DNA from: a virus
Taxonomy: Duplodnaviria > Heunggongvirae > Uroviricota > Caudoviricetes
Reading direction: 5' to 3' (one strand)
IMG/VR virus record: IMGVR_UViG_2585427784_000002
DNA: 30,660 bases
Below are positions 12,705 through 30,125 of the stretch, piece by piece. The stretch's first letter is position 1. Each line of letters begins with the position of its first letter. Under the pieces are notes generated by a model that had not been told where the DNA came from, did not search any database, and saw nothing but the letters and a program-made list of their open reading frames with translations. A program made the translations under genes and the position numbers.

Positions 12705-12705
12705 A

Positions 12706-14347: not shown

Positions 14348-14551
14348 ATGGCTAATTACAATTCATTAATTCGTCTCTCTGAAGTTCAAAGGCGAACTGG
14401 TTATAGCAAAGCATGGATTTATCGTCTTATTAGTCAGGGGAGGTTCCCTAAACAGGTAAAAATTGGAAGTCGGGCAATTGCTTTTGTTGAGTCTGAAATA
14501 GATGAATGGATTGAGAAGTGTATATTAGAATCTAGAGACGAGGTGGCCTGA
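14348..14551 (+). CDS. AlpA-family phage transcriptional regulator / excisionase-like (67 aa)
   Basis: MANYNSLIRLSEVQRRTGYSKAWIYRLISQGRFPKQVKIGSRAIAFVESEIDEWI is the AlpA/P4 Vis-type HTH pattern; ATGA overlap with the next gene. Confidence 0.85.
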   Translation: MANYNSLIRLSEVQRRTGYSKAWIYRLISQGRFPKQVKIGSRAIAFVESEIDEWIEKCILESRDEVA

Positions 14552-14982: not shown

Positions 14983-14994
14983 CGGAGACTGAAA

Positions 14995-15828
14995 ATGAAC
15001 ATCGAAAAAAGCAGATTAATTTCTGAGGCCGCCCCTCATCTGAACGCCTCTCTGGGCACAATTAACGGTAATGAATTTGCCGCAATTGTCCCGGTTATTC
15101 CTGGTCACATCGGTGGGCGTGAAACCAATATTGTTAGCGCAAAAGCGTTACACAAAGCGTTGGGCGTGGGAAAAGACTTCTCTACATGGATCACTGATCG
15201 CATCTCTGAATATGACTTCACCATTGGGCACGATTACTCAGTCCATAAAACAATTTCCCCAAATTTGGGGAAAAGCCCGAATGGCGCGGCTTACAGCAAG
15301 ATTAAGCAGTCTGGCAGACCCGGCAAAGACTATCTGTTAAGTGTCGGAATGGCGAAAGAACTGGCAATGATCGAACGCAATGATCAGGGTCGCGCTATCC
15401 GTCGTTATTTCATCCAGTGCGAGGAAGAATTACAGCGTAGCGTGCCTGAAATCGCCGCCCGCTATCGTCGCCAGCTAAAAGCCCGTATCAGTGCCGCAAA
15501 CAACTTTAAGCCAATGTGCGATGCGCTGAATATGGCCCGTGCCGAGCAGGGGAAAACGACGCAGCAACACCACTACACAAATGAGAGCAATATGATTTCT
15601 CGTATCGTTCTTGGAGGGCTAACTGCTAAGCAGTGGGCGCGGATAAATGGCTATTCTGGCGAACCTCGCGACCATATGAACGCAGAACAGCTTGAGCACC
15701 TCTCATATCTCGAAAGCACCAATATCACGTTAATTGATATGGGCATGGAATATGAGCAGCGCAAAGGAGAACTCACCCGCCTGTCGCAACGCTGGCTCGC
15801 CAAGCGTCTGGAGGCGGTCCATGTTTAA
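14995..15828 (+). CDS. Phage antirepressor/regulatory protein, Rha/AntA/Bro-N-like N-terminal domain (277 aa)
   Basis: N-terminal segment ...NIVSAKALHKALGVGKDFSTWITDRISEYDFTIGHDYSV... matches the phage regulatory (Rha/antirepressor) domain pattern. Confidence 0.6.
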   Translation: MNIEKSRLISEAAPHLNASLGTINGNEFAAIVPVIPGHIGGRETNIVSAKALHKALGVGKDFSTWITDRISEYDFTIGHDYSVHKTISPNLGKSPNGAAYSKIKQSGRPGKDYLLSVGMAKELAMIERNDQGRAIRRYFIQCEEELQRSVPEIAARYRRQLKARISAANNFKPMCDALNMARAEQGKTTQQHHYTNESNMISRIVLGGLTAKQWARINGYSGEPRDHMNAEQLEHLSYLESTNITLIDMGMEYEQRKGELTRLSQRWLAKRLEAVHV

Positions 15829-16003
15829 GCCGACAGGAACACCACAACCTCAAAAACGCTACAAAGATGCCCACGGAGCACTCGTTACTGTCGAAAGCGT
15901 GTCTCACAACCGAGTGACGTTTTATCGCGACGGGTATCAATCGCCATGCGTACAACCGCTGGCGCGCTTCATGAAGGAGTTCGCGGAGGTTAACAAATGC
16001 TAA
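15821..16003 (+). CDS. Small phage protein, DUF4222-like (60 aa)
   Basis: GGAGG RBS 6 nt upstream of ATG at 15821; start overlaps the previous stop (translational coupling). Family assignment tentative. Confidence 0.55.
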   Translation: MFKPTGTPQPQKRYKDAHGALVTVESVSHNRVTFYRDGYQSPCVQPLARFMKEFAEVNKC

Positions 16004-17064
16004 CCGTCCAGAAGAAGATATTTTCACTGGCTGGTATGTCGCCAAAATCCAGCAATATGACAGCAAAGTCTGGCATTAATACAGCAGATACAAGCAAAGT
16101 TTATCATTTTCTGGTGGTAGGAGCGGATGCCTTAACTATGTCAGAAATTACGGTCGATGGTGTTAGCGTTGAGAAGGTCGGCGGCTGCGCCAGAGAATTT
16201 CTGGTCGTAGATGGCTTTCTCTGCTCGCGTAGTGACTCCACAAAAACCTTCGTCCACACGCGCGACGTTAACGAAATGAGCGCGATGTATTGTGCATCTG
16301 GTGCTTCCAATAGTGAGTTTTCGGAGTCCATAAAAAAGAGCTTGCCGTTATGCGGCAACACGGTTTATGGTTATAAGGCACCTCATAAAACGGGTGCCGG
16401 GATTGGCGTCCTGGTAAATCGAATGGCGACATATGACGCGCCGAGCGTCTTTTTTTATGTCGTAGGTCTGACTCACCAATTTTTTGGGCGTTGGTGTATA
16501 ATCCAGCGCCTTTGTCAATCAATGGTGGCTCAGGCAGGGGCTTCTTCGGAAGCGCCGGTATCCATTCGAGCCGGTTACGCCAACCCTGTCTGGGCTACCA
16601 CCAGCGAAATTGGCGTTTCCGGTGGTAGCGTTACATGCTATCGAATGGAGGCTGCCACATGCTGGCTACTACCCCTACCCAAAAACCGCAATTTATCTGG
16701 ATTATCGCCGCAGTTCGCCGCGATTGCCCGACAATTACCGCCAAAATTCATCATATTGCTGCCGAGTCTGAACGCGATGCTCGCCGTTCTCTGGTGCGCG
16801 ATCACGTCTGCTTTTTTGCTGGTCGTATCCGCATGGAGGTGGCACATGATTAAAACCTACGATGTGCATATGGATCCCCTCGAACGCACAAGCCAGATCA
16901 TCACACTGACAGAAGTGATTAACGACATTCTGGTGAGCAACTCTCCCTCACGAGACGAAAGACTGAAGGCGTTACTCGCGATATTGGATCTCGCCGTTCG
17001 TGACGTTCATTTCCTGCTGGAAGGTGGCGAAATGCCAGGAAAAACGGGGGCAACCAATGAATAA
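15997..17064 (+). CDS. Hypothetical protein; the frame is open for 355 codons but the 3' extent is uncertain because two shorter RBS-preceded genes are nested in or appended to it
   Basis: GGAGG RBS 8 nt upstream of ATG at 15997 and overlap with previous stop support the start; no stop until 17064. Confidence 0.4.
16659..16853 (+). CDS. Host cell-division inhibitor Icd-like protein (64 aa)
   Basis: [64 protein letters not shown] resembles the Icd-like small proteins of P4-type elements (conserved FFAGRI region); GGAGG RBS 7 nt upstream; lies in a different frame inside the 355-codon ORF. Confidence 0.55.
   Translation: MLATTPTQKPQFIWIIAAVRRDCPTITAKIHHIAAESERDARRSLVRDHVCFFAGRIRMEVAHD
16846..17064 (+). 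CDS. Hypothetical small protein (72 aa)
   Basis: GGAGGTGG RBS upstream of ATG at 16846; ATGATTAA overlap with the Icd-like stop; same frame as the tail of the 355-codon ORF. Confidence 0.5.
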   Translation: MIKTYDVHMDPLERTSQIITLTEVINDILVSNSPSRDERLKALLAILDLAVRDVHFLLEGGEMPGKTGATNE

Positions 17065-17251
17065 CTCAATTAATGCCCCTCGACTTACGTCCGCACTTCA
17101 ATTAATCGAGCAAGCAGCGGCTGTCCTGGTTGCTGTCAGTCTTTCGGCTGAAGAAATGGACGCTGCTGATGTCGTGGATGCGATTAAAGCGTGCTCATCT
17201 TTGGTTAACGATGCCCGTGCAGAGCTGGTAATTCTTGGGGGTGAAAAATGA
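17057..17251 (+). CDS. Hypothetical small protein (64 aa)
   Basis: Start overlaps preceding stop (ATGAATAA); part of the coupled operon. Confidence 0.5.
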   Translation: MNNSINAPRLTSALQLIEQAAAVLVAVSLSAEEMDAADVVDAIKACSSLVNDARAELVILGGEK

Positions 17252-17511
17252 ATATCAACTTAATTTATCGTCATCCGTGTGAGCTGGAAATTGAATCATT
17301 GCTGAGTCGTGAAGAGCTATATCCAGACACATTCACTCTTGCAGATCGCACGACTGAACGGCTTACCAGAGCGCGCACAGGTCTGGTTCATGTGATGAAT
17401 GAGATTCTTCCATCGGTGGGAGGGGAACAGGCGACAGTAATCAATAGCTGGCTACAAAAAGTTACCTCCCTGATAGATATCAGTTTAATCGATGCGGAGA
17501 GTGCGAAATGA
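17248..17511 (+). CDS. Hypothetical small protein (87 aa)
   Basis: ATGA overlap with both neighbours; part of the coupled operon. Confidence 0.55.
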   Translation: MNINLIYRHPCELEIESLLSREELYPDTFTLADRTTERLTRARTGLVHVMNEILPSVGGEQATVINSWLQKVTSLIDISLIDAESAK

Positions 17512-17729
17512 CCAACATCCAGCTCATTGAAGCGCAATGTCGCATCGAACAGGTTCAGACTGTTTTAGGGTTCTGGCTTGAAGGGGCCAGCCCCAGCAAC
17601 AGAGACAAGTTAATGATTGGCGCGGTTATGTCACTGCTCAATGGCGTACCAGAAGCTATTCAGGAAGCAGACGAATTGTTGGGCAAATATGAGTTACAGA
17701 ATCATTCAGGCGAGGCGAAACATGAATAA
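17508..17729 (+). CDS. Hypothetical small protein (73 aa)
   Basis: ATGA overlap with upstream gene; part of the coupled operon. Confidence 0.55.
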   Translation: MTNIQLIEAQCRIEQVQTVLGFWLEGASPSNRDKLMIGAVMSLLNGVPEAIQEADELLGKYELQNHSGEAKHE

Positions 17730-18324
17730 TTTCTTAACCTTCCATGCAGAAGCAACGCCTGACGGCGTAAACATCATGCACCGCAGCAACGATGGCATGA
17801 CAGAACGCGTTGAGACCGTTTCATATATTGATGCCGTAAATCGTCTGGATGCCGGGGATTATGACGATAAACCAGATGAAGGTATGTCAATACATCTCGC
17901 TATTGCCGATGGCGGCAACCAGGGATATTTCGATTACACATCACAGCATAACGTCATTATGTGGAGATGGCTGATCGCAACAGTATTCATGCTGGAAATG
18001 AGAGAGGAAAACGGCACTGTCAGCATCATTGATGATACTGGCAATCCTTCCGAAGTGGCTGTTTATTCCAACGGCATCGTCGCCATGCCGCTGTATCCAG
18101 TAGCAGAGCGCCTCGCTATGGCAAACAACATTGAGGGCGCGATGATAGAACGTTTTGGCATCGAGTCTGGCACAGAACGCGCCATCATTTTCTACAGAGC
18201 CATGATGGATGTGGAACAAGGAGCACTGACTCCATTTGGTCGTGAAACGCTTGCTGAACTTCACAACAGCTTTATAGCTGAACTGAATGAAAACGGCATG
18301 CCAGCGGAACCAGTGACGCACTGA
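17722..18324 (+). CDS. Hypothetical protein (200 aa; start taken at the internal Met of the 235-codon ORF)
   Basis: GAGG RBS upstream of ATG 17722, which overlaps the upstream stop; the alternative start at 17617 would overlap the previous gene by 113 bp. Confidence 0.55.
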   Translation: MNNFLTFHAEATPDGVNIMHRSNDGMTERVETVSYIDAVNRLDAGDYDDKPDEGMSIHLAIADGGNQGYFDYTSQHNVIMWRWLIATVFMLEMREENGTVSIIDDTGNPSEVAVYSNGIVAMPLYPVAERLAMANNIEGAMIERFGIESGTERAIIFYRAMMDVEQGALTPFGRETLAELHNSFIAELNENGMPAEPVTH

Positions 18325-18334
18325 GGATGGATCC

Positions 18335-18676
18335 ATGATTACTAAAAATTTCCGACTGAATGCGCTGGCAAATAAGTATGCGTCGGCACTGTATAACCAC
18401 ATTACCTCCACCAGCGGCGGGGACTATTTCATGGTTGATGCGGACGGCGAGGCCGTCCGTGTGGAAATCGTCAATGGAGTAAAAGGCGTTCGCAGCCTGA
18501 TCGATAGCTACACACTGGCAGCCATGAAAGTGTTCTACCCGCAGTGGGAAACCGTGGGGATAGAGCTTCTTGATCGTTGCGTCACTAAGGACGGATTGAC
18601 TGACGTCGGGCGTGAGATATGGCAAAGCATGGTTAATGACATGGGCGCAACTGTAGCGGGAGGTTCTCATGCGTGA
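18335..18676 (+). CDS. Hypothetical protein (113 aa)
   Basis: ORF in the coupled operon just upstream of the primase; no family recognised. Confidence 0.55.
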   Translation: MITKNFRLNALANKYASALYNHITSTSGGDYFMVDADGEAVRVEIVNGVKGVRSLIDSYTLAAMKVFYPQWETVGIELLDRCVTKDGLTDVGREIWQSMVNDMGATVAGGSHA

Positions 18677-19040
18677 AAATGCAGAAATGGCGCTTAGCTC
18701 CGCAATCGGAGAGCAGGTGGCAAAGATTGCTGGCGCTGTGTGGATTCATAACCTTCATTCTACTGGTGAAGAGAAAATGGCAATTCAGACGCCAGAGGGA
18801 CGCACCATTACTACATCTCTGAAGGTGTCAGATGTTTGTGATCTGATTTGCGCATTCATGTACCCAGCAATGAGGACTGTCCACGGCGATAAGTGGAAAC
18901 TTGCGACAACCGCTGAATTTGATATGTGGCTAAACAATGATGGCATGCTGACTGATTACGGAATAACCAAGTGGCAGATGCTGGTTAGCCATATCGCAAA
19001 CGCTATAGACCACGTGGGGTACGGTGATGCGAAACATTGA
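18669..19040 (+). CDS. Hypothetical protein (123 aa)
   Basis: Overlaps neighbours at both ends; part of the coupled operon. Confidence 0.55.
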   Translation: MRENAEMALSSAIGEQVAKIAGAVWIHNLHSTGEEKMAIQTPEGRTITTSLKVSDVCDLICAFMYPAMRTVHGDKWKLATTAEFDMWLNNDGMLTDYGITKWQMLVSHIANAIDHVGYGDAKH

Positions 19041-21783
19041 TCTTATCCGTCAGGTTATCAGTGCGTCTGAAAACAACTGGCCTCATGTGCTGGGCTGCCT
19101 GAACATAAATGTCCCTGACTCTCCGCGCCGTCATGCTCCCTGCCCTGCATGTGGGGGCAAAGATCGATTCCGGTTCGATGACAACGGGCGCGGTAGCTTC
19201 ATCTGTAATCAGTGCGGCGCTGGTGATGGACTGGATTTAATTAAACGCGTAAATAACTGCGACACAACAGAGGCGGCGCTTCTTGCCGCTGATGTTCTGG
19301 GTATTGATTACCGGACAACGGAAACACCAGAAGCCACCAGCCAGAAACGGGAACAACTGGAAACCGAGCGCCAGCGACGCGAACAGGAGCGCCTGAAAGG
19401 GGCAGAGAAGGACGAACAACAAAGACGGGATACGTTTTCCCGTCAGTTTGATGACATGCGCAGAAAGGCTGTAAACGGCAAATCTGATTATCTGGTTGCG
19501 AAAGGGGTAGGTGATTTTACATTCCCCGTGTTGCCCGATGGATCTCTGTTGCTGGCGCTGGTGGATAAATCCGGCGCAGTAACAGCAGCACAGACTATTA
19601 CCTCACATGGTGAAAAAAGACTCCTGACAGGTTCAGCAAAGCGAGGGGCATATCACGCCATAAACGCACCAGAAACAACACAGAGCATCTTAATCGCAGA
19701 AGGGCTGGCAACGGCATTATCTGTCCATTTAATTCGTCCAGAGGCGCTGACAGTGGCGGCGATTGATGCCGGGAACCTGTTATATGTCGCCCAGGTACTG
19801 CGGGATAAATTTCCTTCAGCACAAATCATCATTGCTGCGGATAACGACCACAGCGAAGGAAGACAAAACACGGGGAGAATAGCAGCAGAAAAAGCAGCTT
19901 TATCTGTTTCTGGATGGGTGGCATTACCCCCGACAGATCACAAAGCAGACTGGAATGATTACCACCAAAAACACGGCATTAAATGCGCCACAGAAGCGTT
20001 CAATAAGTCAATGTACCAACCACAGGGTAATGGCGTGAAACAGGAGCCACAGACCATTGAGGGAAGCGATTTTAAGGTTATGGATACCGACCCACTGAAA
20101 CCAAGAATAGAAAGCCGCGAGGATGGTATTTATTGGGTATCTCCGAGAGCTGACAGCCAGAGTGGAGAAATCATCAATAACGAAAGCTGGTTATGTTCTC
20201 CATTAAGCGTTATCGGTACTGGCAGAGACGATAAAGACCAGTATCTCATTCTTCGCTGGCTGTCGTTTGGTTCTGAAACGCCGACAACCGCTGCCATTCC
20301 ACTGGCTGATATTGGTGAACGTGAAGGATGGCGCACACTTAAAGCTGGTGGGGTAAATGTCACGACCAAAAGCAGCCTCAGAGCAATACTGGCAGACTGG
20401 CTACAACGCAGTGGCTCTCGTGAATTGTGGCGTGTTGCTCATGCCACTGGCTGGCAATGCGGAGCGTACATCATGCCTGATGGGGAAATCATCGGAACAC
20501 CTGAAAATCCTGTGCTGTTCAGCGGGAGAAGCTCAGCCGCAGCCGGATATACCGTCTCAGGGAGCGCGAAAAGCTGGCGTGATAACGTGGCGCGTCTGGC
20601 CTTTGGTAACTATTCAATGATGACCGGGATCGGCGCAGCACTGGCAGCGCCATTGATTGGGCTGGTGGGCGCTGACGGGTTCGGCATTCATTTCTATGAG
20701 CAGTCGAGCGCAGGTAAGACCACCACGGCAAACGTGGCGAGCAGCTTATACGGCAACCCTGATTTACTGCGGCTGACGTGGTACGGAACCGCGCTGGGGC
20801 TGGCAAATGAAGCTGCCGCCCACAATGACGGACTAATGCCGCTTGATGAAGTTGGTCAGGGCGCTGATCCTGTCAGTGTTTCACAGTCTGCCTATGCGTT
20901 ATTTAACGGTGTAGGGAAACTGCAAGGCGCTAAAGATGGTGGAAACCGGGATCTAAAACGCTGGCGTACAGTGGCAATCAGCACCGGAGAAATGGATTTA
21001 GAAACATTTATCGCTACTTCCGGGCGAAAAACCAAAGCCGGGCAACTGGTGCGACTGCTGAATATTCCGTTGAGTAAAGCAGTACGCTTTCACGATTACC
21101 AGAACGGAAAACAGCACGCAGACGCACTGAAAGACGCTTACCAGCATCACCACGGCGCAGCCGGGCGTGAGTGGATTAAATGGCTGGCAGACCACCAGCA
21201 ACAGGCAATTAAAACTGTTCGTGACTGCGAAAGCAGATGGAGAAGTCTGATCCCATCCGATTATGGTGAGCAGGTTCACCGTGTAGCCGCGCGATTTGCC
21301 ATTCTGGAGGCCGCATTGCTGTTAGGCGAGGTTGTAACAGGCTGGGATGCTCAGACATGCCGTGATGCGATACAGCACAGCTATAACGCATGGTTGCGCG
21401 AGTTCGGCACAGGTAACAAAGAACATCAGCAGATTATTGAACAAACGGAGGCATTTCTTAATGCCTATGGGCTTAGCCGTTTTGCACCATTTCCATACAG
21501 CCCGGCAGATTTGCCCATCAAAGATTTAGCCGGATACCGTCAGCGTGGAGAACATGACGAAAGCCCAATGATTTTCTACACATTCCCGGCCACATTTGAA
21601 AAGGAGATCGCATGTGGTTTCAACGCAAAACAGTTTGCTGAAGTGTTGAAAAAAGCCGGGATGCTAACCCCACCAAACAGCGGTCGTGGATACCAAAGAA
21701 AATCACCACGTATTCAGGGACGACAAATAAACGTTTATGTACTCAATTACCAGCCAGGAGATTACAACTCATCTGAAGAATGA
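19024..21783 (+). CDS. Primase-helicase (P4 alpha-like): N-terminal Cys4 zinc-binding primase region, TOPRIM-like segment, C-terminal P-loop NTPase (919 aa)
   Basis: CPACGGKDRFRFDDNGRGSFICNQCG zinc-finger; TOPRIM-like IIAEGLATAL and DxD-type acidic motifs (AADNDH); Walker A YEQSSAGKTTTAN; ori-like iterons immediately downstream. Confidence 0.85.
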   Translation: MMRNIDLIRQVISASENNWPHVLGCLNINVPDSPRRHAPCPACGGKDRFRFDDNGRGSFICNQCGAGDGLDLIKRVNNCDTTEAALLAADVLGIDYRTTETPEATSQKREQLETERQRREQERLKGAEKDEQQRRDTFSRQFDDMRRKAVNGKSDYLVAKGVGDFTFPVLPDGSLLLALVDKSGAVTAAQTITSHGEKRLLTGSAKRGAYHAINAPETTQSILIAEGLATALSVHLIRPEALTVAAIDAGNLLYVAQVLRDKFPSAQIIIAADNDHSEGRQNTGRIAAEKAALSVSGWVALPPTDHKADWNDYHQKHGIKCATEAFNKSMYQPQGNGVKQEPQTIEGSDFKVMDTDPLKPRIESREDGIYWVSPRADSQSGEIINNESWLCSPLSVIGTGRDDKDQYLILRWLSFGSETPTTAAIPLADIGEREGWRTLKAGGVNVTTKSSLRAILADWLQRSGSRELWRVAHATGWQCGAYIMPDGEIIGTPENPVLFSGRSSAAAGYTVSGSAKSWRDNVARLAFGNYSMMTGIGAALAAPLIGLVGADGFGIHFYEQSSAGKTTTANVASSLYGNPDLLRLTWYGTALGLANEAAAHNDGLMPLDEVGQGADPVSVSQSAYALFNGVGKLQGAKDGGNRDLKRWRTVAISTGEMDLETFIATSGRKTKAGQLVRLLNIPLSKAVRFHDYQNGKQHADALKDAYQHHHGAAGREWIKWLADHQQQAIKTVRDCESRWRSLIPSDYGEQVHRVAARFAILEAALLLGEVVTGWDAQTCRDAIQHSYNAWLREFGTGNKEHQQIIEQTEAFLNAYGLSRFAPFPYSPADLPIKDLAGYRQRGEHDESPMIFYTFPATFEKEIACGFNAKQFAEVLKKAGMLTPPNSGRGYQRKSPRIQGRQINVYVLNYQPGDYNSSEE

Positions 21784-21808
21784 GCTTCTTCATGTGCGTA
21801 GAAAAGGC

Positions 21809-21919
21809 GTTGGTTCAGTTGGTTCAGTTGGTTCAATTTGTAAAGAGTATTGTTTTATAAGGATTTTATTCTTTTTATTGAACCAACACTGAACCAACAA
21901 CACGGTATTTTGAACCAAC
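21809..21919. repeat. Iteron cluster / candidate replication origin: 3 tandem GTTGGTTCA, AT-rich spacer, 3 inverted TGAACCAAC
   Basis: Direct copies at 21809-21835, AT-rich 43-bp spacer, inverted copies at 21879-21919; sits directly 3' of the primase gene, as origins do in PICI/P4-type replicons. Confidence 0.75.
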
Positions 21920-22241
21920 ACAATGTGACTGAATTGATGCGCACAACACCTGGCTGGCATCAGAGAGTGTTTTACGAGACTTTCGTAAAATCCTGTGTAC
22001 AAGGGCGTGACGTTTTTGAAAGTGAGCACTACGAAATTTTCGTAGTTCAGAAAACAGCCCCTGAGAAGTTGTTATGCCTGTTCAGCAAATCATCCGCATA
22101 GCTGATCGCGAATCAAATTACCAATGGAGCCAGAAGCAAGGGCAGAACTGAAAAGCGCCTGCCGTGAAGAGTAATGCGACACCATAAATATAGTTTTTAG
22201 AGTCCATAAAAAACCTGTCAAAACCTGACACACAGAACGAT

Positions 22242-22272
22242 GCCACCAGCTACTGAGCGGTGGCATTTTTTT
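22242..22272 (+). terminator. Rho-independent terminator (GCCACC...GGTGGC stem followed by ATTTTTTT)
   Basis: 6-bp GC stem with 11-nt loop followed by a 7-T run at 22266-22272. Confidence 0.65.
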
Positions 22273-22332
22273 GTGCTATCTGTTTCATATTTTGCAATTA
22301 CGATGATGAATATTGCGATTTGTGAAACTATA

Positions 22333-22356
22333 ATAACTGTTGTTTTATACAGTTAT
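22333..22356. promoter_or_regulatory. Palindromic operator-like site ATAACTGT-N8-ACAGTTAT overlapping a TATAAT -10-like hexamer, upstream of a small ORF
   Basis: Perfect 8-bp inverted repeat arms with 8-bp spacer; TATAAT at 22328-22333; AAGGGGG RBS and ATG at 22368 follow. Confidence 0.5.
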
Positions 22357-22367
22357 AAGGGGGCGTT

Positions 22368-22529
22368 ATGGCTATTTCAGTAAAGCCGGTATTGATAAGT
22401 GAGAAGCAAATGGAAGCGATAAAGAAAATTCAGGAAGAGCAGCGTAAAAAATCAGGAATTGGAGTAGCGCCAACTCTGCATGAAATTGCACGAGGGTTAA
22501 TAGATAAGGCGCTGGCAGGCTGTATGTGA
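22368..22529 (+). CDS. Small putative DNA-binding regulator (53 aa; possibly ribbon-helix-helix-like)
   Basis: Strong RBS (AAGGGGG) 7 nt upstream; palindromic operator immediately upstream; short protein MAISVKPVLISEKQMEAIKKIQEEQRKK... Below the ORF-track length cut-off, found by reading. Confidence 0.45.
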   Translation: MAISVKPVLISEKQMEAIKKIQEEQRKKSGIGVAPTLHEIARGLIDKALAGCM

Positions 22530-22545
22530 AAATGGATGGCATCGC

Positions 22546-23007
22546 ATGGAACTAAAATTTATTGATAACCCTGTGCGATTACAGGCCTTTCTTAACGAGC
22601 CTGGCAATACCGAAAATATTGTTGAGCCGGGGCACACGTACTACATCAAGCCTGATGCGGTATATCTCGGTATCTACGAAGGATTGGTGCTGGCTGGCGT
22701 TCATGAAGTGCGTAACTTCTGGCATAGCATTGTTGAATGCCATGCGGTGTACGACCCCGGATTCCGTGGTGAATATGCACTACAAGGGCATCGATTATTC
22801 TGCAAATGGCTTCTCGAAAACTCACCATTCCTTAACAGCATCACCATGGTTCCTGACACAACGAAATACGGACGGGCAATTATCCGTTTGCTTGGCGCTA
22901 CCCGTGTTGGTCACCTTGATGATGCTTATATCAGATGTGGTAAACCCGTCGGCGTAACGCTTTATCAGTTAACTCGGCAACAATATAAGGAATTCAGCGA
23001 ATGTTAA
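22546..23007 (+). CDS. Hypothetical protein (153 aa); by position possibly the podovirus gp14-like gene preceding the ejection-protein genes
   Basis: ORF directly upstream of and overlapping the next gene's start; family not recognised from sequence. Confidence 0.5.
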   Translation: MELKFIDNPVRLQAFLNEPGNTENIVEPGHTYYIKPDAVYLGIYEGLVLAGVHEVRNFWHSIVECHAVYDPGFRGEYALQGHRLFCKWLLENSPFLNSITMVPDTTKYGRAIIRLLGATRVGHLDDAYIRCGKPVGVTLYQLTRQQYKEFSEC

Positions 23008-23678
23008 TTACCCATATAGCTCATAAATATCTCAATCGTGCCGTATACGAAAAAGGCGGTGATGGTGGTGCCTCTAAAGCTCAGGCGAAGGCCCAGCAGC
23101 AGGCAATTGATTTGCAGCGCGAGCAGTGGAATACGGTGATGAATAATCTCAAGCCGTATGCAGAAGTCGGATTGCCTGCTTTACAACAACTACAAGGACT
23201 GATGACTCTGGAAGGGCAGAATAAAGCCGCGAATGATTTCTTTGGTTCTGGTTTATATAAAACACAGGCAGATCAGGCCCGTTATCAGAACCTTGTCTCA
23301 GCAGAAGCTACCGGGGGGCTTGGCACAACAGCTACCAGTAACCAGTTATCTTCCATTGCGCCCATGCTTTATAACAATTGGCTCAGTGGGCAAATGCAAA
23401 ATTATGGAAACCTGCTAAATGTCGGGATGAATGCGGCATCAGGGCAGGCAACAGCAGGGCAAAACTACGCCAATAATACCGGACAACTCTTGCAGGGGCT
23501 TGGCGCTATTCGTGCAGGTCAGGCGCAGCAGCCATCCAGTCTTGCGCGTGGTATTGGTGGGGCGGCATCAGGCGCTTTAGCGGGTGCGCAACTTGGTTCC
23601 GTTGTTCCGGGTATAGGTAATGTCGCCGGGGCTATTGGTGGTGGGCTTATTGGTCTTGTTGGGGGGCTTGGATTCTAA
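23001..23678 (+). CDS. Q/A/G-rich protein with glycine-zipper C-terminus (225 aa); candidate P22 gp7-like ejection (DNA-transfer) protein
   Basis: N-terminal ...YEKGGDGGASKAQAKAQQQAIDLQREQW..., extensive Gln/Ala/Gly low complexity, C-terminal GxxxG-rich hydrophobic tail (GIGGAASGALAGAQLGSVVPGIGNVAGAIGGGLIGLVGGLGF); size and position match gp7 of P22-like phages (from memory). Confidence 0.45.
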   Translation: MLITHIAHKYLNRAVYEKGGDGGASKAQAKAQQQAIDLQREQWNTVMNNLKPYAEVGLPALQQLQGLMTLEGQNKAANDFFGSGLYKTQADQARYQNLVSAEATGGLGTTATSNQLSSIAPMLYNNWLSGQMQNYGNLLNVGMNAASGQATAGQNYANNTGQLLQGLGAIRAGQAQQPSSLARGIGGAASGALAGAQLGSVVPGIGNVAGAIGGGLIGLVGGLGF

Positions 23679-25099
23679 TGGCGACATGGCAACTTGGCGG
23701 GCTGCCTAGCATGGCACCGCAAAATGATAATGCTCCTCGTTCTTCCGTTCCTCAGCCTGTGCAGTATCAGCAGCAGCCAAACGTAGGTTTAATGGCGCTA
23801 CAGGGGCTAAGAGGCGTTGCTGAGATTAATCAGCAGGCACGTCAACAACAGCGTAAAGCAGAGTTTCAGAAAGCATATGCCGGGGCTTTTGAGTCTGGAG
23901 ACAGAAACAAAATGCGCAGTCTTATTTCTGAGTATCCAGAAGAATTTGAAAGCGTTCAGAAAGGGATGGGCTTTATTGATGACGACCAGAGAAATTCTAT
24001 TGGTCATCTTGCGACTAGTGCTCAAATCGCATCTTCGCTCGGAACTGGGGCATTTGGAAAATTCATAGCAGATAACGAAGATGAAATGCGTCGCTTGGGA
24101 ATTTCTCCTGAGTCTGTTGCCGAAATGCATGTTAATGATCCACAGGAATTCCAGCGGCTTGCTGGTAGTATGGCACTGTTTTCTCTCGGTCATGAGAAGT
24201 ACTTCGATATCAAAGATCGAATGGAAGGTCGGGATATTGAGCGTGGCAAGTTGGCAGAGACAATCCGCAGCAATCAGGCTGGAGAGGCGCTTCAGGCGAG
24301 AGGGCAGGATATTAGCCGAGCAAATGCGTTAACGTCAGCATATGCACCAACAGCCGCAATGCAGAATTACAATCAGTACGCGCAAATGTTAAAGGCGGAT
24401 CCAGAGGGGGCAGCGGCATTTGCGGCAGCGGCTGGAATTAATACAAACGCCAAAAAATTAATGAGTGTTAGGGAAAACGATGATGGCACTGTCACAAAAT
24501 ACTACACAGACGGAAGTGAAGAGCAGGGAAAACTCACCCAGCCAATATCTGGAGATGGGTTTCGTCCAATAGCTTTGCCAACAGCCCAAAAGATCATGGA
24601 AAAGTCGCCAGAAGGGGCTAAAAAAGCTGCTGGATTTGCATACAGGGTTAGGGATGCTCTTGATTCAATAGATACACTGAGAGACCAGCTTAGCCCACAG
24701 CGAGTGGCGATCATTAATAATGCTTTGGGTAATGGGACGCTGGCTAACTTAACGCTCAGCCCAACAGAGCAGCAATACGTTGTTAATGCTAATGACGCAA
24801 TAATGGCAATACTCCGTCAGGAAACAGGGGCAGCTATCGCACCTGCTGAAATGTCAAAATATTATCAAATGTATTTCCCTCAGCCTGGCGACTCCACAAA
24901 AACCATTGATACCAAGCGCCGGAAGATGGAAAACCAGTTCAATTCGCTGAAAGCTGCTTCTGGTCGAGCTTATGATGCTTTGCGGGTTATTTCAGCAGTT
25001 GACAGAGGAACTTCTTCTTCGTCGCAGACATTGCCGCAATCTGAGCAGGTATCACAGCCAGCAGCCAGCAGTAACTTTTCTTCACTATGGGGTGATTAA
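23678..25099 (+). CDS. Q/A-rich protein (473 aa); candidate P22 gp20-like ejection (DNA-transfer) protein
   Basis: Start overlaps previous stop (TAATG); low-complexity Gln/Ala-rich composition; size close to P22 gp20 (about 471 aa, from memory). Confidence 0.45.
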   Translation: MATWQLGGLPSMAPQNDNAPRSSVPQPVQYQQQPNVGLMALQGLRGVAEINQQARQQQRKAEFQKAYAGAFESGDRNKMRSLISEYPEEFESVQKGMGFIDDDQRNSIGHLATSAQIASSLGTGAFGKFIADNEDEMRRLGISPESVAEMHVNDPQEFQRLAGSMALFSLGHEKYFDIKDRMEGRDIERGKLAETIRSNQAGEALQARGQDISRANALTSAYAPTAAMQNYNQYAQMLKADPEGAAAFAAAAGINTNAKKLMSVRENDDGTVTKYYTDGSEEQGKLTQPISGDGFRPIALPTAQKIMEKSPEGAKKAAGFAYRVRDALDSIDTLRDQLSPQRVAIINNALGNGTLANLTLSPTEQQYVVNANDAIMAILRQETGAAIAPAEMSKYYQMYFPQPGDSTKTIDTKRRKMENQFNSLKAASGRAYDALRVISAVDRGTSSSSQTLPQSEQVSQPAASSNFSSLWGD

Positions 25100-27204
25100 T
25101 GGCTAAAGCATGGAAAGATGTTATCGCCTCTCCACAGTATCAGGCGTTAGCACCAGAACAAAAAGCGCAGGCTCAGGAGCAATACTTCAATGAAGTCGTG
25201 GCCCCGCAAGCCGGAGAAAGTGTAGAGCAGGCTAAGCAGGCTTTTTATGCTGCCTATCCACTACCATCAACGAATGAAATAGACCGATCCCAATCAGCAA
25301 CTCAAAATATTCAACATACATCATCTGATAATTCTCTTGCGTCAGGGTATGCAAAGTTAGCTACTCAGCAAAGAGAGGGGCTTGAGCGTTCAGCAGAACA
25401 GGGAGCCAGTCTTGGGGCTGCGATGCGCGATGCTATAACAGGCGAAAGCCGAATGACTCCAGAGATGGAGAGACTGCAAAATGTCGCCTCTGCCCCAGAA
25501 TTGAACTCACTAAGCATGGATGCCCTAAAGGCTGGATGGTCTCAACTTTTCGGCTCTGACGCGTCTCAGGAAAAGATTCTTCAGGGAATGGGGGCGACAT
25601 TAAGGCAGGATGAGAAGGGGAATACTATCGTTTCTCTGCCATCAGGTGATTATGCCCTGAACAAGCCGGGTTTATCACCGCAAGACCTGACTTCGTTTCT
25701 TGCTAATGCGTTGGCGTTTACACCAGCGGGCAGGGCTGGAACGGTGCTTGGTGCCATAGGAAAATCAGCAGCTACAGATTTAGCACTACAGGGAGCCACC
25801 AGCCTTGCTGGTGGAGAAGATATTGATCCGTTACAAACGGTAATTTCTGCTGGCATTGGTGGTATTGGTAAGGGGCTGGAAAATACAGCGAGTGCGGTTT
25901 CGAGGGCTGTTCGTGGTGATATGTCGCCTGAAGCAAAGGCTGCTGTCGACTTTGCATCGGAAAGAAATCTGCCGTTAATGACCAGTGACATGCTGAAAGA
26001 TAAAACCTTTATGCAGAGTCAGGCTCAGACATTAGGCGAAAGAGTTCCTTTTTTTGGAACCGGTAAGAATCGGCTGAATCAACAACAAGCACGAGAAAAT
26101 TTAGTCAGAACATTTAGCGATGGTCTGGGTGGCATTTCTGATAAACAGCTTTATGAATCTGCGACTAAAGGGCAACAAAAATTCATTGAGGCAGCAGGAA
26201 AGCGATATAACCGCATAATTGACGCTATGGGGGATACCCCTGTCGATCTCTCAAACACGGTAAAAGCTATCGACAATCAGATTGCCGTGTTAAGCCGCCC
26301 GGGCAAATCTCAGGATAGAGCCGCGGTAAAAGTCTTGCAGCAATTTAAAGACGATATCACCAGCGGACCAAATGACCTGCGTCTGGCGAGGGAAAACAGA
26401 ACCGATCTTCGAAAGCGATTTATGGCGTCATCTGACACTGTTGATAAAGATACGCTCCAGAAAGCCAGCGATATTATCTACAAGGCATATACGGCGGATA
26501 TGAAAAAAGCCGTAGCCAAAAATCTTGGAGCAGACGAAGCCATTAATATGGCAAGGGTTGATCGCTCATGGTCTAAATTCAATGACATGATGGGAAGAAC
26601 GCGCGTTCAAAAGGCAATAGCCAGCGGCAAGGCCACGCCTGAGGATGTAACAAAACTCGTTTTTAGCCAAAGCCCATCAGAACGTTCTCAGCTTTACAGG
26701 CTTCTGGATGACAATGGTAGGCAAAACGCACGAGCAGCCATAGTTCAGAATGCTGTAGATAAGGCGACTGATCCGTCTGGAAATATCAGTGTCGAGAAGT
26801 TTATTAATGCGTTACACCGGAACAGGAAGCAATCAGCAACTTTCTTTAAAGGCGTACATGGAAAGGAACTGGACGGCGTTATTAAATACCTCAACGATAC
26901 AAGACACGCGGCAAAAGCGAACGTTCAAAACTTAAATGGTCAGCAGCTTTATGGATTGTTAGTTGGTGGTGGCATCATAAACGCAGCAGTATTAGCGGGG
27001 ATGCTAAAAACGGCTGCGTTTGTTGTTCCTGCTGCTGGTGCCGTAGGCGGAGCAGCGAAGGCATACGAAAGCCCTGTTATACGAAATGCCTTGTTACGTC
27101 TGGCAAATACGCCAAAAGGTAGCACAGCATATGACAGAGCGATCAGTACGGTCACACAATCGCTCACCAGAGTCGCACAGGCATCACAAAAAGAAGCTCA
27201 ATAA
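25099..27204 (+). CDS. Q/A/G-rich protein (701 aa) with hydrophobic Gly/Ala-rich segment near the C-terminus; candidate P22 gp16-like ejection protein
   Basis: Start overlaps previous stop (TAATG); GGGVTGA-type RBS; composition similar to the two preceding proteins; third member of a 7-20-16-like trio. Confidence 0.45.
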   Translation: MAKAWKDVIASPQYQALAPEQKAQAQEQYFNEVVAPQAGESVEQAKQAFYAAYPLPSTNEIDRSQSATQNIQHTSSDNSLASGYAKLATQQREGLERSAEQGASLGAAMRDAITGESRMTPEMERLQNVASAPELNSLSMDALKAGWSQLFGSDASQEKILQGMGATLRQDEKGNTIVSLPSGDYALNKPGLSPQDLTSFLANALAFTPAGRAGTVLGAIGKSAATDLALQGATSLAGGEDIDPLQTVISAGIGGIGKGLENTASAVSRAVRGDMSPEAKAAVDFASERNLPLMTSDMLKDKTFMQSQAQTLGERVPFFGTGKNRLNQQQARENLVRTFSDGLGGISDKQLYESATKGQQKFIEAAGKRYNRIIDAMGDTPVDLSNTVKAIDNQIAVLSRPGKSQDRAAVKVLQQFKDDITSGPNDLRLARENRTDLRKRFMASSDTVDKDTLQKASDIIYKAYTADMKKAVAKNLGADEAINMARVDRSWSKFNDMMGRTRVQKAIASGKATPEDVTKLVFSQSPSERSQLYRLLDDNGRQNARAAIVQNAVDKATDPSGNISVEKFINALHRNRKQSATFFKGVHGKELDGVIKYLNDTRHAAKANVQNLNGQQLYGLLVGGGIINAAVLAGMLKTAAFVVPAAGAVGGAAKAYESPVIRNALLRLANTPKGSTAYDRAISTVTQSLTRVAQASQKEAQ

Positions 27205-27222
27205 CTGGTTAGCCATGGATGG

Positions 27223-27642
27223 CTAATTTTTGTTCTTTGCTCTCATCCATAGGTAAAGAAGGGAAAGAACAAGACAAAAAACAGAGAATAGATAACCTAC
27301 CTCATATGGTGCGCCAAAAAAATTAGCTATTGATACGGGCAAAAAAGCTGAAGCGATCAAAATTGAAAGGCAAAAAATAAGCCCAGTAATATAGTTTATT
27401 AAATTCTTAAATGAGAAATGTTTTGCTTGATTTACGGTCTTAGCGAATGATCGCTTAACGACGGATAAAAGCAAATAGATGGCGACAGTTGCTAATGCCC
27501 CTTTCCACCAATCTGGATATAGTTTTGCGACAATCAGACCAAGGAAAACCATGATGACAGCCTGAGCATTCACACCAACCCTCCCTTTAGCGTTGTTTAG
27601 AATGGCAATCATCATATATCCAAGACATGGCATTTGGTACAT
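27223..27642 (-). CDS. Small polytopic inner-membrane protein (about 130-139 aa, 3-4 predicted TM helices) in a visibly AT-rich segment; candidate superinfection-exclusion/abortive-infection type protein
   Basis: Hydrophobic stretches (MMIAILNNAKGRVGVNAQAVIMVFLGLIVAKL..., ALATVAIYLLLSVV..., ITGLIFCLSILIASAFLPVSIANFF..., YLFSVFCLVLSLLYLW); convergent with the 701-aa gene, 18 bp between stops; no clear RBS so exact start uncertain. Confidence 0.55.
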   Translation of the reverse strand: MYQMPCLGYMMIAILNNAKGRVGVNAQAVIMVFLGLIVAKLYPDWWKGALATVAIYLLLSVVKRSFAKTVNQAKHFSFKNLINYITGLIFCLSILIASAFLPVSIANFFGAPYEVGYLFSVFCLVLSLLYLWMRAKNKN

Positions 27643-28616
27643 AGCTTGGGTCGGGATTTCAAATCCGCTCCCAGTTGATGGGGCCGTTACAGTACGCGCA
27701 TATCCGCTTTATGTGAAACAGGAAGATTTTTCTGATATCACTGCCACAGCAAAACACCAATTTCGAGACAAGTACGCGCACGAGGGGTATCAGTTGCAAA
27801 AAATTTTGCAACTACGTCCGACCAGTATGCACACGATGGCGGGGGGATACCATAAAACTGTTCTCTACATGAGACAGAGTGGTGGTGATGTGTTGATTAT
27901 CGGCGTATATGCGCACAGGACGCGCTATGACGATGTTTTATGCGGGTACACCAATACATGTATCTGGTGTGATAAATCGCGTTACATGACCTCTCATGTT
28001 GTGCTGGTGGTTATCACGACGTTCTGAATCTGGCCTTTGCCTGGTATTTTGCGACAAGTACGCGCGCGTAGCATCGAAATAATCGGATGGCGTATGCTGC
28101 TGGTAATATGAAGACCGATAGCATTAACCGAAAGGAGAAAGACTTCTCGATAACGGCAAGATCGCGGCAAGGGGGCTGAATTGCGAGGCGAGATTAAGCA
28201 ACTGTCTTGAACGTAAAAATCATGGAGCAACATGCTGGTACGATTCATTCCATTCTTCGTTCTTTCTGAGCATTGCGTTCAGGCTTAGTCAAAATTAGTG
28301 TTGCGAGCGGACCTATTAGTAATTGTTAGTGCGATGCGTCTGTTATGGATTGTTATGCCTGTGGCAGGCCTGATTAATATCCAGTATGACCACCAGCTAT
28401 GAGAGGCCACCTCAGTGGTTCGCAGTTGCAGGTTTGCACTCAGGTTCGCAGGGTTTTGGCTACTTTCACGTGCGAACCTGCAGAATTGCAAAGGACAACT
28501 AAGTCCTCTGGCCAACTCCCGGTTTATGAGCGACACAGTCCGCCTGGCGCATCGTTTTCGTCGAGTGCGCCCATCAGCTTGTCCATGGACTATCCACCAC
28601 TCGATATTAAAGCTAA

Positions 28617-28802
28617 TCATTGGTTGCCAGCCCGCGAATCAAGTTTGTTCTGGATCCAAGCTTCAACCTCCTCAAGCGACCATCTAGCTGATCTACCAAT
28701 TTTAACTGGCTGTGGAAACGTGCCCGTCTTAACCCATGAGTAGATTGCCGTTTTCTTGAAGCCCGTTCTGAGCATGACTTCGCTTAATTTGATAAGGCGC
28801 AT
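28617..28802 (-). CDS. Second AlpA-family regulator (61 aa)
   Basis: MRLIKLSEVMLRTGFKKTAIYSWVKTGTFPQPVKIGRSARWSLEEVEAWI is the AlpA-type HTH pattern; GAGGAG-like RBS upstream on the minus strand. Confidence 0.8.
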   Translation of the reverse strand: MRLIKLSEVMLRTGFKKTAIYSWVKTGTFPQPVKIGRSARWSLEEVEAWIQNKLDSRAGNQ

Positions 28803-29053
28803 AGAGGCTCCTCTGCTTTAGATTAAGCATAGTGACAATCTGGCTTTGTGCGGTATCCAAAAGCGAGGTATCCATGTTGGTATCCACCAAAACGCTGTTT
28901 ACCAAAAAAGTTACCACCGGAACAGGACATTTTGAGCTGTAACTTAACACATAGCATATGGAGTTCACGCATAGACTTCACGCACAACGGCTCCGGCCAG
29001 AGAAGAATCACCCTGGCTGGCAATATAATGCCGATCACCATCAGAGGGGAATC

Positions 29054-29246
29054 CATGACACCACGAGAAATCGAGCTGCTGACCATTGCCAAGCTGGAGC
29101 ATGACGGCTACCAGCTCAGCCCGGCAGAACTGCGGGAATTAAGGCGCCAGCTGGCAGAGGGCCCTGTAATAGCCAGGCGGTACCGCGCAATGATGACCAG
29201 CCCCACATATCGCTGGAGCAAACCAGCGCCGCTCCGTGCGCGGTGA
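29054..29246 (+). CDS. Hypothetical small protein (64 aa; start at the internal Met of the 132-codon ORF)
   Basis: GAGGGG RBS about 6 nt upstream of ATG 29054; upstream part of the longer ORF is compositionally non-protein-like and overlapped by other ORFs. Confidence 0.35.
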
Positions 29247-29320
29247 GCAGCACCTAACCAGCACTAGACAAGCCCTGTGCTGGTGGATGTCCCTCATAAT
29301 TAGCGGTTTTTAAACGGCGT

Positions 29321-29441
29321 GTTGGTTCACGGCCTCTTTTTGTTGGTTCAAAAATGGGGTGTGTTGGTTCACTTTTTGCGAATAATCCTTTTAAAAACAA
29401 TACTCTTTACAAATTGAACCAACTGAACCAACTGAACCAAC
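29321..29441. repeat. Second iteron cluster: 3 spaced GTTGGTTCA, AT-rich spacer, 3 tandem inverted TGAACCAAC
   Basis: Same 9-bp iteron as at 21809-21919; the block from about 29382 to 29432 is the reverse complement of about 21819-21870, including the spacer segment AATTTGTAAAGAGTATT. Confidence 0.75.
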
Positions 29442-29477
29442 ACCTTTTTGCTTATCTATATAGTCTGAGAGGCAGAA

Positions 29478-29765
29478 ATGATAAGAGACAGGAAAGCTGA
29501 AGAGCTGGAGTCAAAAAGGCTATGCCGGAGAGCTGCCACACGATGGGCAGAAGTCATGACGCTGGCAGATGGCAATAAAGAACGTGAACATGCAGCAAAC
29601 AGACGCTCTGAATGTATCCGTAGGGCGGCACGCCCACCAGCAACTACAGACAGATTCGGAGATTTAAGACAGGCAGTTAAGCGGACTCATTCGGCTCTTG
29701 GTATGGATGAGGAAGCGAGAGGGTACTTCAGGCGTTATCGCGATAAAGATTGCCAGAGACAGTAA
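29478..29765 (+). CDS. Small basic protein (95 aa), possibly nucleic-acid binding
   Basis: GAGAGG RBS about 5 nt upstream; Arg-rich sequence (RRAATRW..., RRSECIRRAARPP..., RRYRDKD); located between the second iteron cluster and attR. Confidence 0.5.
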   Translation: MIRDRKAEELESKRLCRRAATRWAEVMTLADGNKEREHAANRRSECIRRAARPPATTDRFGDLRQAVKRTHSALGMDEEARGYFRRYRDKDCQRQ

Positions 29766-30107
29766 TGCTCTCTCTGTTTTGGCAAATTACCCCTCACTTT
29801 GAAGGGATCGGAGCTATAAAAATGGTGTTATCCGGCTTCCTGCATTGCAGGTTTTCAAAAGAATCAATGGGTTAGGTCATCGTGCAAATTTGCACTCTGC
29901 CATCCAACGCAATTTCTCGTTGGCGGAAATATCAGGTATTTACTGAACGAACGGCCTACCCGCCTGTTCAACTACCAGTTGTACATGGCTGCTTTATGTG
30001 CAAATGGTGGTGAGAGAAAATTGTTTGGGGGTACTTTTGGGGGTATCTCCAAAGATGTAATGGGAAAATGTCTTTATATATCAATGTATTTTTATTGTTT
30101 GTTTTGT

Positions 30108-30125
30108 TCCTATTATCGCACCATT
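30108..30125 (+). repeat. attR, TCCTATTATCGCACCATT, imperfect direct repeat of the tRNA-Thr 3' end at attL
   Basis: 18 of 19 positions identical to 12524-12542 (one G deleted); the GGGGGTACTTTTGGGGGTAT motif lies about 65 bp inside. Confidence 0.75.

Follow-up and report, generated by a model that had tools for sequence, protein, structure and literature searches.

The 30,660-nucleotide (nt) stretch of DNA analyzed here (IMG/VR virus record IMGVR_UViG_2585427784_000002, a member of the Caudoviricetes), referred to below in its whole length as the window, contains an operon that, to judge from its sequence, is a complete and intact P22-type ejection gene set together with gp14. The operon does not belong to a phage genome, but to a 17.6-kb island (12524-30117) at a thrW remnant, on which no terminase, portal, scaffold, coat, tail or lysis genes were found. 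The island is a new cassette variant of the published EcCIMP1 satellite family. New here is the recognition of the module as a full ejection set that is apparently under purifying selection and occurs across genera and in two layouts. The operon and the gene facing it are composed as follows (positions in the window, strand in brackets, lengths in amino acids, aa).

22368-22529 (+): 53-aa protein, first in the operon that follows the primase gene, conserved across genera
22546-23007 (+): gp14 homolog (DUF2824), 153 aa; Pfam DUF2824 PF11039, E=2e-61, 206.7 bits (cut-off 25); PHROG 651
23001-23678 (+): gp7 homolog, ejection protein, 225 aa; Pfam P22_gp7 PF25688, E=8e-72, 242.2 bits (cut-off 28)
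23678-25099 (+): gp20 homolog, ejection protein, 473 aa; Pfam Inj_translocase PF16928, E=2e-58, 198.4 bits (cut-off 29.7); PHROG 917, E=1e-111
25099-27204 (+): gp16 homolog, ejection protein, 701 aa; PHROG 770, E=2e-163; precomputed Pfam PF26808 Phage_P22_gp16
27207-27228 (no strand): terminator-like hairpin between the convergent genes
27223-27642 (-): convergent AT-rich gene for a multi-pass membrane protein, open reading frame (ORF) of 139 aa, likely 109 aa (27223-27552)

An initial annotation, made from the letters and the ORFs of the window, had likened these genes to the P22 genes 14-7-20-16. The Pfam and PHROG assignments, and BLASTP matches to the P22 proteins, turn this resemblance into homology. 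The PHROG 917 match spans the full 473-aa protein, and the match to PHROG 770 ("DNA transfer protein") runs end to end on the 701-aa protein. Identity to the P22 proteins is 23% for gp14, 55% for gp7 (BLASTP), 38% for the N-terminal half of gp20 (BLASTP) and 29.9% over 482 aligned columns for gp16 (BLASTP, E=6e-52). A search of PDB sequences gave no match to solved structures of gp7, gp20 or gp16 relatives. The order and coordinates of the six ORFs were as described by the initial annotation, and so was the composition of the proteins: glutamine, alanine and glycine together make up 41.8% of the 225-aa protein and 29% of both the 473-aa and the 701-aa protein, and the C-terminal tail of the 225-aa protein is hydrophobic and rich in Gly, Ala and Leu. 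The 153-aa and 225-aa genes overlap by 7 nt, the next two junctions are 1-nt overlaps of the ATGA type, and the GC content of the ejection genes is 0.46-0.50.

Gene order (14-7-20-16), overlapping or abutting genes and a convergent membrane gene after gene 16 (sieA in P22) are shared with P22, and also with Sf6, CUS-3 and HK620. Sizes are similar as well, with 151, 229, 471 and 609 aa for gp14, gp7, gp20 and gp16 in P22 versus 153, 225, 473 and 701 aa in the window. The mosaic pattern of P22-like phages recurs, with gp7 as the most conserved ejection protein and hypervariability of the gp20 C-terminus and of gp16. Unlike in P22, the genes of the window lie outside a virion-assembly cluster and follow a satellite primase, an origin and the 53-aa gene. 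The satellite proteins would be packaged into virions and, on release during infection, form the DNA conduit, for which purifying selection, the matched gp20 and gp16 ends and the interchangeability of foreign sets in P22 (see below) are indirect support.

EcCIMP1 is a phage-inducible chromosomal island (PICI) of 19,963 base pairs (bp) at thrW of E. coli MP1 with the same attachment (att) core as the present island (Pick, Stadel and Raivio, ISME J 2025, PMC11773190; GenBank OR778291). It excises and circularizes only in the presence of the P22-like phage Kapi1, with a requirement for alpA and int, is transduced by Kapi1 at low frequency, and adds to the superinfection immunity of Kapi1 lysogens (PMC11773190). 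Figure 1 of that paper colors some EcCIMP1 genes as "DNA transfer", and for EcCIMP1_017-019 a likeness to DNA-transfer and DUF2824 proteins was reported and an involvement in packaging suggested (PMC11773190). The genes were thus treated as possible packaging factors and not as an ejection-protein set; the complete set was not recognized and no role in ejection was proposed, so that satellite-encoded ejection machinery is a new idea. Apart from EcCIMP1, full-text literature searches for satellites or PICIs with ejection proteins brought up nothing but unrelated work on staphylococci.

In the MP1 genome, the order is primase, 53-aa gene, DUF2824 gene, gp7-like, gp20-like and gp16-like gene. The initial annotation was aware of no description of such an arrangement, but EcCIMP1 has the same one (PMC11773190). 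Window and EcCIMP1 are 98.4% identical at the nt level over 12524-23838 (from attL to about 160 nt into gp20) and 97.3% identical over 27648-29558 (from alpA_1 to perC), and the two blocks together make up 75% of the window element. The part between them (23839-27647), which comprises most of gp20, all of gp16 and the gene after gene 16, has no match in EcCIMP1. The EcCIMP1 proteins measure 439 aa (gp20) and 906 aa (gp16, which includes a lytic-transglycosylase domain), versus 473 and 701 aa in the window, and the two gp16 proteins show no detectable similarity. Downstream of gene 16, EcCIMP1 encodes a 232-aa protein on the same strand with an apparent lipobox (LSLLAGC, by eye), whereas the window has the convergent membrane protein. 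The window element is also smaller (17.6 kb versus 19,963 bp). The block from gp20 to the gene after gene 16 is exchanged as one unit. The satellite context claimed by the initial annotation (int, alpA and primase without terminase, portal and coat genes) held, and its published prototype is mobilized by a P22-like podovirus. With its int/AlpA/primase backbone, att repeats at a tRNA gene, a length in the range of about 10-20 kb and no virion or lysis genes, the island has the makeup of an EcCIMP1-like PICI. Helper-dependent excision, replication and transduction, which were shown for EcCIMP1 with Kapi1, would by likeness extend to the window variant.

The satellite alleles of the ejection genes are mosaics drawn from P22-like prophages. 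Identity to the Kapi1 proteins drops along the operon, from 83% for gp14 to 57% for gp7 and 35% for gp20 (N-terminal domain only), and BLASTP detects no similarity between the gp16 of the window and that of Kapi1; EcCIMP1's own gp20 and gp16 are about 24-26% identical to those of Kapi1. A close relative of the window gp16 is encoded in a complete P22-like prophage of E. coli N62 (at argW), with 94.3% identity over residues 69-701, and the protein is a chimera of a CUS-3-type N-terminus of about 56 aa and an N62-type body. In other satellites, gp20 matches the CUS-3 protein with 98% identity, or the alleles are Kapi1-like, and patches of 91-97% nt identity to various P22-like phages occur within otherwise divergent genes.

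Within this mosaic, the end of gp20 is matched to the beginning of gp16. The C-terminal tail of the window gp20 (...NFSSLWGD) fits the N-terminus of its own gp16, and the two co-vary: tails of the type "...SSLWGD" occur with "MAKAWKDVIASPQYQAL..." and tails of the type "...SGIQFTVE" with "MKVTANGKTF...". This is what one would expect of a pair kept in working order. The conserved junction of gp20 end and gp16 start may be an interface for interaction or, alternatively, a hot spot of recombination. Experiments with P22 are informative here. Full sets of gp7, gp20 and gp16 taken from Sf6, L, CUS-3 or HK620 are incorporated into P22 virions and are functional there (Leavitt et al., mBio 2024, PMC10883804). 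A swap of gp20 or gp16 alone is lethal, but the pair functions with P22 gp7 (Table 4 in PMC10883804). The two-gene satellites described below carry exactly gp20 and gp16, the minimal exchangeable unit of P22, and the same two genes are part of what has been swapped as a cassette between EcCIMP1 and the window element. At the junction itself, positions 25099-25300 are 97% identical to Sf6 at the nt level over 200 bp, while the gp16 bodies compared (Sf6, HK620, CUS-3) are otherwise unrelated.

The survey of homologous islands called for by the initial annotation showed that the arrangement recurs in all related islands examined, and the gene order is therefore no accident. Two layouts were found in satellites, either 53-aa gene-gp14-gp7-gp20-gp16, or 57-aa gene-gp20-gp16 without gp14 and gp7, and all satellite loci that reach past the primase have gp20 and gp16. 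Citrobacter-linked satellites have the four-gene layout and Serratia-linked satellites the two-gene layout, in both cases with an SLT domain in gp16. The same slot is occupied in satellites of three genera, with differing alleles and integrases. An alignment scan of genome contigs across species with the gp20 N-terminus confirmed one locus (L091, Escherichia sp.). Among complete E. coli genomes, the junction from primase through the 53-aa gene and gp14 to gp7 is present in 236 of 5426, and the C-terminal part of gp20 with gp16 and the membrane gene (at least 80%) in 326 of 5426, so that these islands occur in about 4-6% of them. In an assembly collection, 3627 indexed blocks contain a protein identical to the 701-aa one; among the matches listed, 10 of 10 distinct contexts were satellites, at no fewer than three chromosomal sites.

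The possibility that the module is part of a complete P22-like prophage was examined and rejected, as terL, portal and coat genes are lacking both from the window and from all satellite loci, and no other structural gene was found beside the module in any of these loci. Reading frames are intact in all full-length satellite copies examined, save those interrupted by insertion sequences (IS) or truncated. In comparisons between satellites, ratios of nonsynonymous to synonymous substitution rates (dN/dS) were 0.11 for gp14, 0.20-0.29 for gp20 and 0.16-0.34 for gp16, versus 0.11-0.15 for the primase. These values indicate purifying selection on the ejection module.

The 53-aa gene is a conserved head of the satellites' helper-exploitation operon, with the ejection genes as one version of the content, because its homologs lead ejection operons and, in Klebsiella, another operon. 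Homologs in satellites of Citrobacter, Serratia and Klebsiella are 70-87% identical (species-named ones) and always come first in the operon. The term cargo, chosen by the initial annotation, does not fit, since the module fills a conserved post-primase operon slot led by the 53-aa gene. In a Klebsiella michiganensis relative (L094, 10001-15729), the 53-aa homolog heads a different operon, with unknown proteins of 334, 238, 175 and 233 aa, a Terminase_2 small subunit and DUF2280. As this slot holds a small-terminase operon, the comparison suggests that the post-primase slot is swapped by helper type.

The 53-aa protein has no match in Pfam, PHROG or PADLOC, and thus no phage counterpart in PHROG. 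An AlphaFold (AF2) model (predicted local distance difference test score, pLDDT, 76) consists of a coil followed by two helices. This topology is compatible with a ribbon-helix-helix protein, yet the Foldseek comparison of the model with PDB gave no significant match, and such an assignment is tentative. The protein is possibly a small DNA-binding regulator. The initial annotation had proposed a regulator with a palindromic operator; the inverted repeat is indeed present, whereas regulator and operator stay putative. The region ahead of the gene has the following features, all of them matches at the consensus level only.

22231-22275 (+): terminator-like hairpin with T-run, preceding the operon promoter region
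22329-22334 (+): TATAAT-like hexamer
22332-22355 (no strand): inverted repeat ATAACTGT/ACAGTTAT, overlapping the TATAAT-like hexamer

Further upstream, between the iterons and the terminator-like hairpin, two perfect palindromes (TACGA-N5-TCGTA, at 21973-21987 and 22030-22044) lie 57 bp apart.

The island also contains a short sequence that is shared with small-terminase (terS) genes of P22-like phages and is a candidate pac-site mimic.

16314-16338 (+): 25-mer TGAGTTTTCGGAGTCCATAAAAAAG, identical to nt 141-165 of CUS-3-type terS

All satellites of this family have the exact 25-mer. It is exactly present in terS of the N62 prophage, with unrelated flanks, and its phage matches are terS of CUS-3, N7, phiv205-1 and others. 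In IMG/VR, 67 matches were found, 52 in terS and 15 in satellites, and these are the only two contexts. In three satellites (L056/L061 and L062, which represent two further flank types), the left flank is unrelated while the 25-mer is exact. Within terS, it lies in the coding sequence of the DNA-binding domain, where P22-like phages have their pac sites according to studies of P22 and Sf6. For the CUS-3-type TerS, the literature searched yielded no mapped pac site. CUS-3-type terS is present in 395 of 5426 E. coli genomes. Kapi1 has an Sf6-type TerS, together with a TerL essentially identical to that of CUS-3-type phages, and no other pac-like or terS-like segment is common to the window and Kapi1, which share only the gp14-gp7 stretch. 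A preference for CUS-3-type TerS may therefore explain the inefficient transduction by Kapi1, and CUS-3-type phages would be predicted as the efficient helpers. The alternative is a regulatory role of the 25-mer, for example as a binding site near a promoter-like sequence. It lies just upstream of such a sequence (picked by eye) ahead of isrK.

The gene that faces the operon probably starts at Met31 (27552), which gives a protein of 109 aa, because the first approximately 25 codons are a shared 5' leader and because the prophage homolog is annotated with 109 aa. The same leader also precedes unrelated genes in sister elements. With a GC content of 0.36-0.38, and with three clear hydrophobic segments and a fourth likely by eye in a crude Kyte-Doolittle scan, the gene agrees with the AT-rich convergent gene for a protein with three to four transmembrane segments that had been described. 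It has no Pfam, PHROG or PADLOC match. In the N62 prophage, a convergent 109-aa gene directly after gene 16 encodes a protein that is 89% identical to the membrane protein of the window. The distance between the gene-16 stop and the convergent gene is 18 bp in the window versus 22 bp to sieA in P22.

Of the likeness to SieA suggested by the initial annotation, the position in the slot was right, whereas similarity in sequence was absent. SieA proteins (types A-C) share the motif FxRYPxEAxxFNK near the C-terminus (PMC10883804); this motif is missing and BLASTP gave no match to P22 SieA (type A), so that homology to SieA was rejected. The protein is multi-pass and its N62 counterpart follows gene 16, an analogy of position and topology only. 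In sister satellites, unrelated envelope proteins fill the slot after gene 16, in one case a secreted-looking protein with an apparent N-terminal signal sequence, as one typically finds at a hot spot for morons or exclusion genes. By analogy, the membrane protein is a candidate exclusion moron, and the gene in this slot may be behind the immunity phenotype reported for EcCIMP1.

The initial annotation had left three options, a captured fragment of a P22-like prophage, a satellite that supplies its own ejection proteins, and an exclusion or decoy module, of which the second fits the data best. We consider it somewhat probable that the satellite ejection proteins are assembled into helper procapsids, and that the DNA of transducing particles is injected by way of a satellite-specified conduit. 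The island would be a P4-like element (integrase, AlpA, immunity RNAs, primase, iterons) that is parasitic on P22-like podoviruses (Lederbergvirus). During lytic growth of the helper, AlpA would switch the island on, and excision and replication would follow, as shown for the prototype EcCIMP1. The post-primase operon would be expressed and its ejection proteins co-assembled into helper procapsids, and particles from such a cell, satellite-filled ones included, would deliver their DNA through the satellite-specified conduit. P22 gp14 is a non-virion assembly factor for the ejection proteins, and the presence of its homolog favors a role in virion assembly over one in the cytoplasm. The satellite might, speculatively, gain independence from the gp20/gp16 allele of any single helper. 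An equally speculative gain would be escape from resident P22-like prophages with exclusion systems directed at the C-terminal portions of these two proteins. Mutations that confer escape from SieA lie in the C-terminal regions of gp16 and gp20, and the set from HK620 partly evades exclusion (PMC10883804). The strong difference of the satellite gp20 and gp16 from those of Kapi1 is in line with this idea. The membrane gene, to judge from its position, would be a moron brought along with gp16 from P22-like prophages and would probably act in the envelope of the carrier cell.

Other observations weigh against this proposal. That the satellite proteins are produced, enter capsids and affect transfer is what we infer from the genes. 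EcCIMP1 is transduced at low frequency only, and the Kapi1 titer is unchanged by it (PMC11773190). As ejection proteins are taken up into procapsids ahead of the DNA, satellite and helper particles would get the same mixture and share any benefit. Of five highly divergent ejection-protein sets, four were excluded by P22 SieA and HS1 SieA (PMC10883804), which makes a change of allele alone a weak escape route. The signature of purifying selection could stem in part from recent import out of phages, and synonymous divergence (dS) of the ejection genes greatly exceeds that of the primase, a sign of recombination. Finally, the cross-genus survey comprises a handful of loci, found via homologs of the 53-aa protein.

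Recombination is at the heart of one alternative, according to which the module provides DNA homology to helper late operons, for recombination into concatemers with headful packaging of cointegrates, or for allele shuffling, and the proteins are incidental. The identity patches shared with different P22-like phages, the strong mosaicism and the dS values far above the backbone are in its favor, and the low Kapi1 transduction of EcCIMP1, with only the gp14-gp7 stretch in common, also fits. We nevertheless consider it quite unlikely, since homology alone needs neither whole genes nor gp14, and would not keep frames intact in full-length copies (IS-interrupted or truncated ones aside), hold dN/dS well below 1 or retain functionally coherent pairs; the 25-mer is, moreover, a separate candidate packaging signal. 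That the module is an inert captured piece of a P22-like prophage, a recombination scar without function, is highly improbable. Its alleles clearly come from such prophages, cryptic elements are common at thrW and other remnants lie upstream in the window, but a scar would hardly be found in the same slot in three genera with different alleles and integrases, and under purifying selection, in a family whose prototype EcCIMP1 is fully mobile, and without another structural gene ever beside it.

It is also unlikely that the proteins are made in the carrier to block incoming P22-like conduits or to poison helper progeny, even though the next gene encodes an envelope protein in the exclusion slot. 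Export signals are lacking in the ejection proteins, although their place of action, once a virion has released them, is the periplasm and the membranes. The four-gene layout keeps gp14, the assembly factor, Kapi1 titers are not changed by EcCIMP1, and the matched pairs of gp20 tail and gp16 N-terminus look like parts of a working conduit. The immunity effect is more simply accounted for by the variable envelope gene after gene 16 (lipoprotein-like in EcCIMP1, a membrane protein here).

The proposal that satellite ejection proteins enter helper capsids can be extended, more tentatively. It is possible, though doubtful in this full form, that a widespread satellite family of Escherichia, Citrobacter and Serratia exploits the ejection step by means of a matched gp20/gp16 pair that re-arms helper capsids and lets it enter lysogens that exclude the helper's conduit, that the 25-bp copy of the helper's terS-internal pac region serves packaging without a terminase of its own, and that the high-frequency helpers are phages with CUS-3-type TerS and not Kapi1. 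Satellites are known to hijack their helpers by remodeling of capsid size, by redirection of the terminase, or by taking tails only. To our knowledge, no satellite has been demonstrated to contribute proteins that enter the next cell along with the DNA. If incorporation into capsids is true, satellites can reprogram DNA entry itself, and this would bear on host range, on the arms race with gp20- and gp16-directed exclusion systems of prophages, and on how these islands spread.

The backbone of the island combines features of two groups of satellites. P4-like are the integrase, AlpA, the Ash-family protein, the C4 and isrK RNAs, the alpha-type primase and the two iteron clusters. P4 itself has iteron regions at ori and crr and the CI RNA. 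The marker set of P4-like satellites in the sense of SatelliteFinder consists of psu, delta and sid; none of these families was detected when the element's main called ORFs were scanned with Pfam and PHROG. The helpers differ as well, as P4 depends on P2 and EcCIMP1-type islands on a podovirus with headful packaging. The Gram-negative PICIs EcCICFT073 and EcCIEDL933 have, like the window, an int-alpA-primase backbone, a PerC-like gene and a helper-exploitation operon after the primase, but PICIs of this type use functions for packaging redirection and none has been reported with ejection proteins. The backbone features are as follows.

12495-12540 (+): 3' 46 nt of tRNA-Thr (thrW), an exact 46-nt suffix of thrW from locus L020
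12524-12533 (+): attL core TCCTATTATC, inside the thrW remnant, left satellite end, identical to the EcCIMP1 att core (PMC11773190)
12706-13920 (+): tyrosine integrase, 404 aa; Pfam Arm-DNA-bind_3, Phage_int_M, Phage_integrase
14348-14551 (+): AlpA; Pfam Phage_AlpA, E=7e-20; in a region 98.4% identical to EcCIMP1
14995-15828 (+): AntA-type antirepressor; Pfam AntA, E=1e-21; PHROG anti-repressor
15997-17064 (+): Ash-family ORF with P4/P1-type immunity region; Pfam Phage_ASH
16378-16455 (+): isrK RNA; Rfam, 67 bits, above gathering score
16518-16605 (+): C4 antisense RNA; Rfam, 79.5 bits, above gathering score
19024-21783 (+): P4-alpha-like primase/helicase (Zn-ribbon, Toprim, DUF927); Pfam; PHROG 1139, E=2e-178
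21809-21919 (no strand): iteron cluster 1, three copies of GTTGGTTCA, an AT-rich spacer and three copies of TGAACCAAC
28617-28802 (-): second AlpA/excisionase-like gene (alpA_1 of EcCIMP1); ORF in a region 97.3% identical to EcCIMP1 at the nt level
29321-29441 (no strand): iteron cluster 2, mirror image of cluster 1, crr-like
29478-29765 (+): PerC-family regulator; Pfam PerC, E=1e-28
30108-30117 (+): attR core TCCTATTATC, right satellite end

ARAGORN found no complete tRNA in the window. The first iteron cluster, presumed to be the origin of replication, lies just after the primase stop, and the second ahead of perC, 7.5 kb away; each has 3+3 copies of the 9-mer GTTGGTTCA/TGAACCAAC. The isrK and C4 RNAs fall within the 355-aa Ash ORF, in the P4/P1-type RNA immunity region, and this long ORF may be partly spurious; at its position, a truncated ash and an Icd-like gene are annotated in sister elements. 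For EcCIMP1, alpA was shown experimentally to be the master regulator, and a role of alpA_1 in helper excision was reported (PMC11773190).

Known defense families were not detected by PADLOC, Pfam or PHROG among the small backbone ORFs. About 1 kb between the membrane gene and alpA_1 (27643-28616) is without a convincing ORF. In sister satellites, the corresponding interval holds variable cargo (Abi_2, a Peptidase_M78 pair, RnlAB, or a pair of 318 and 145 aa), and it is apparently an empty defense hot spot in the present copy. Outside the satellite, on its upstream side, there is a GmrSD-type type IV methyl-directed restriction enzyme (8295-10244, - strand; PADLOC mREase_IV, 1441 bits), along with what is left of other integrative elements, namely part of an integrase (5328-5948) and an ORF with YagK/YfjJ domain (1954-2580). 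Together with the location of attL in a partial thrW copy, these remnants look like tandem accretion of islands.

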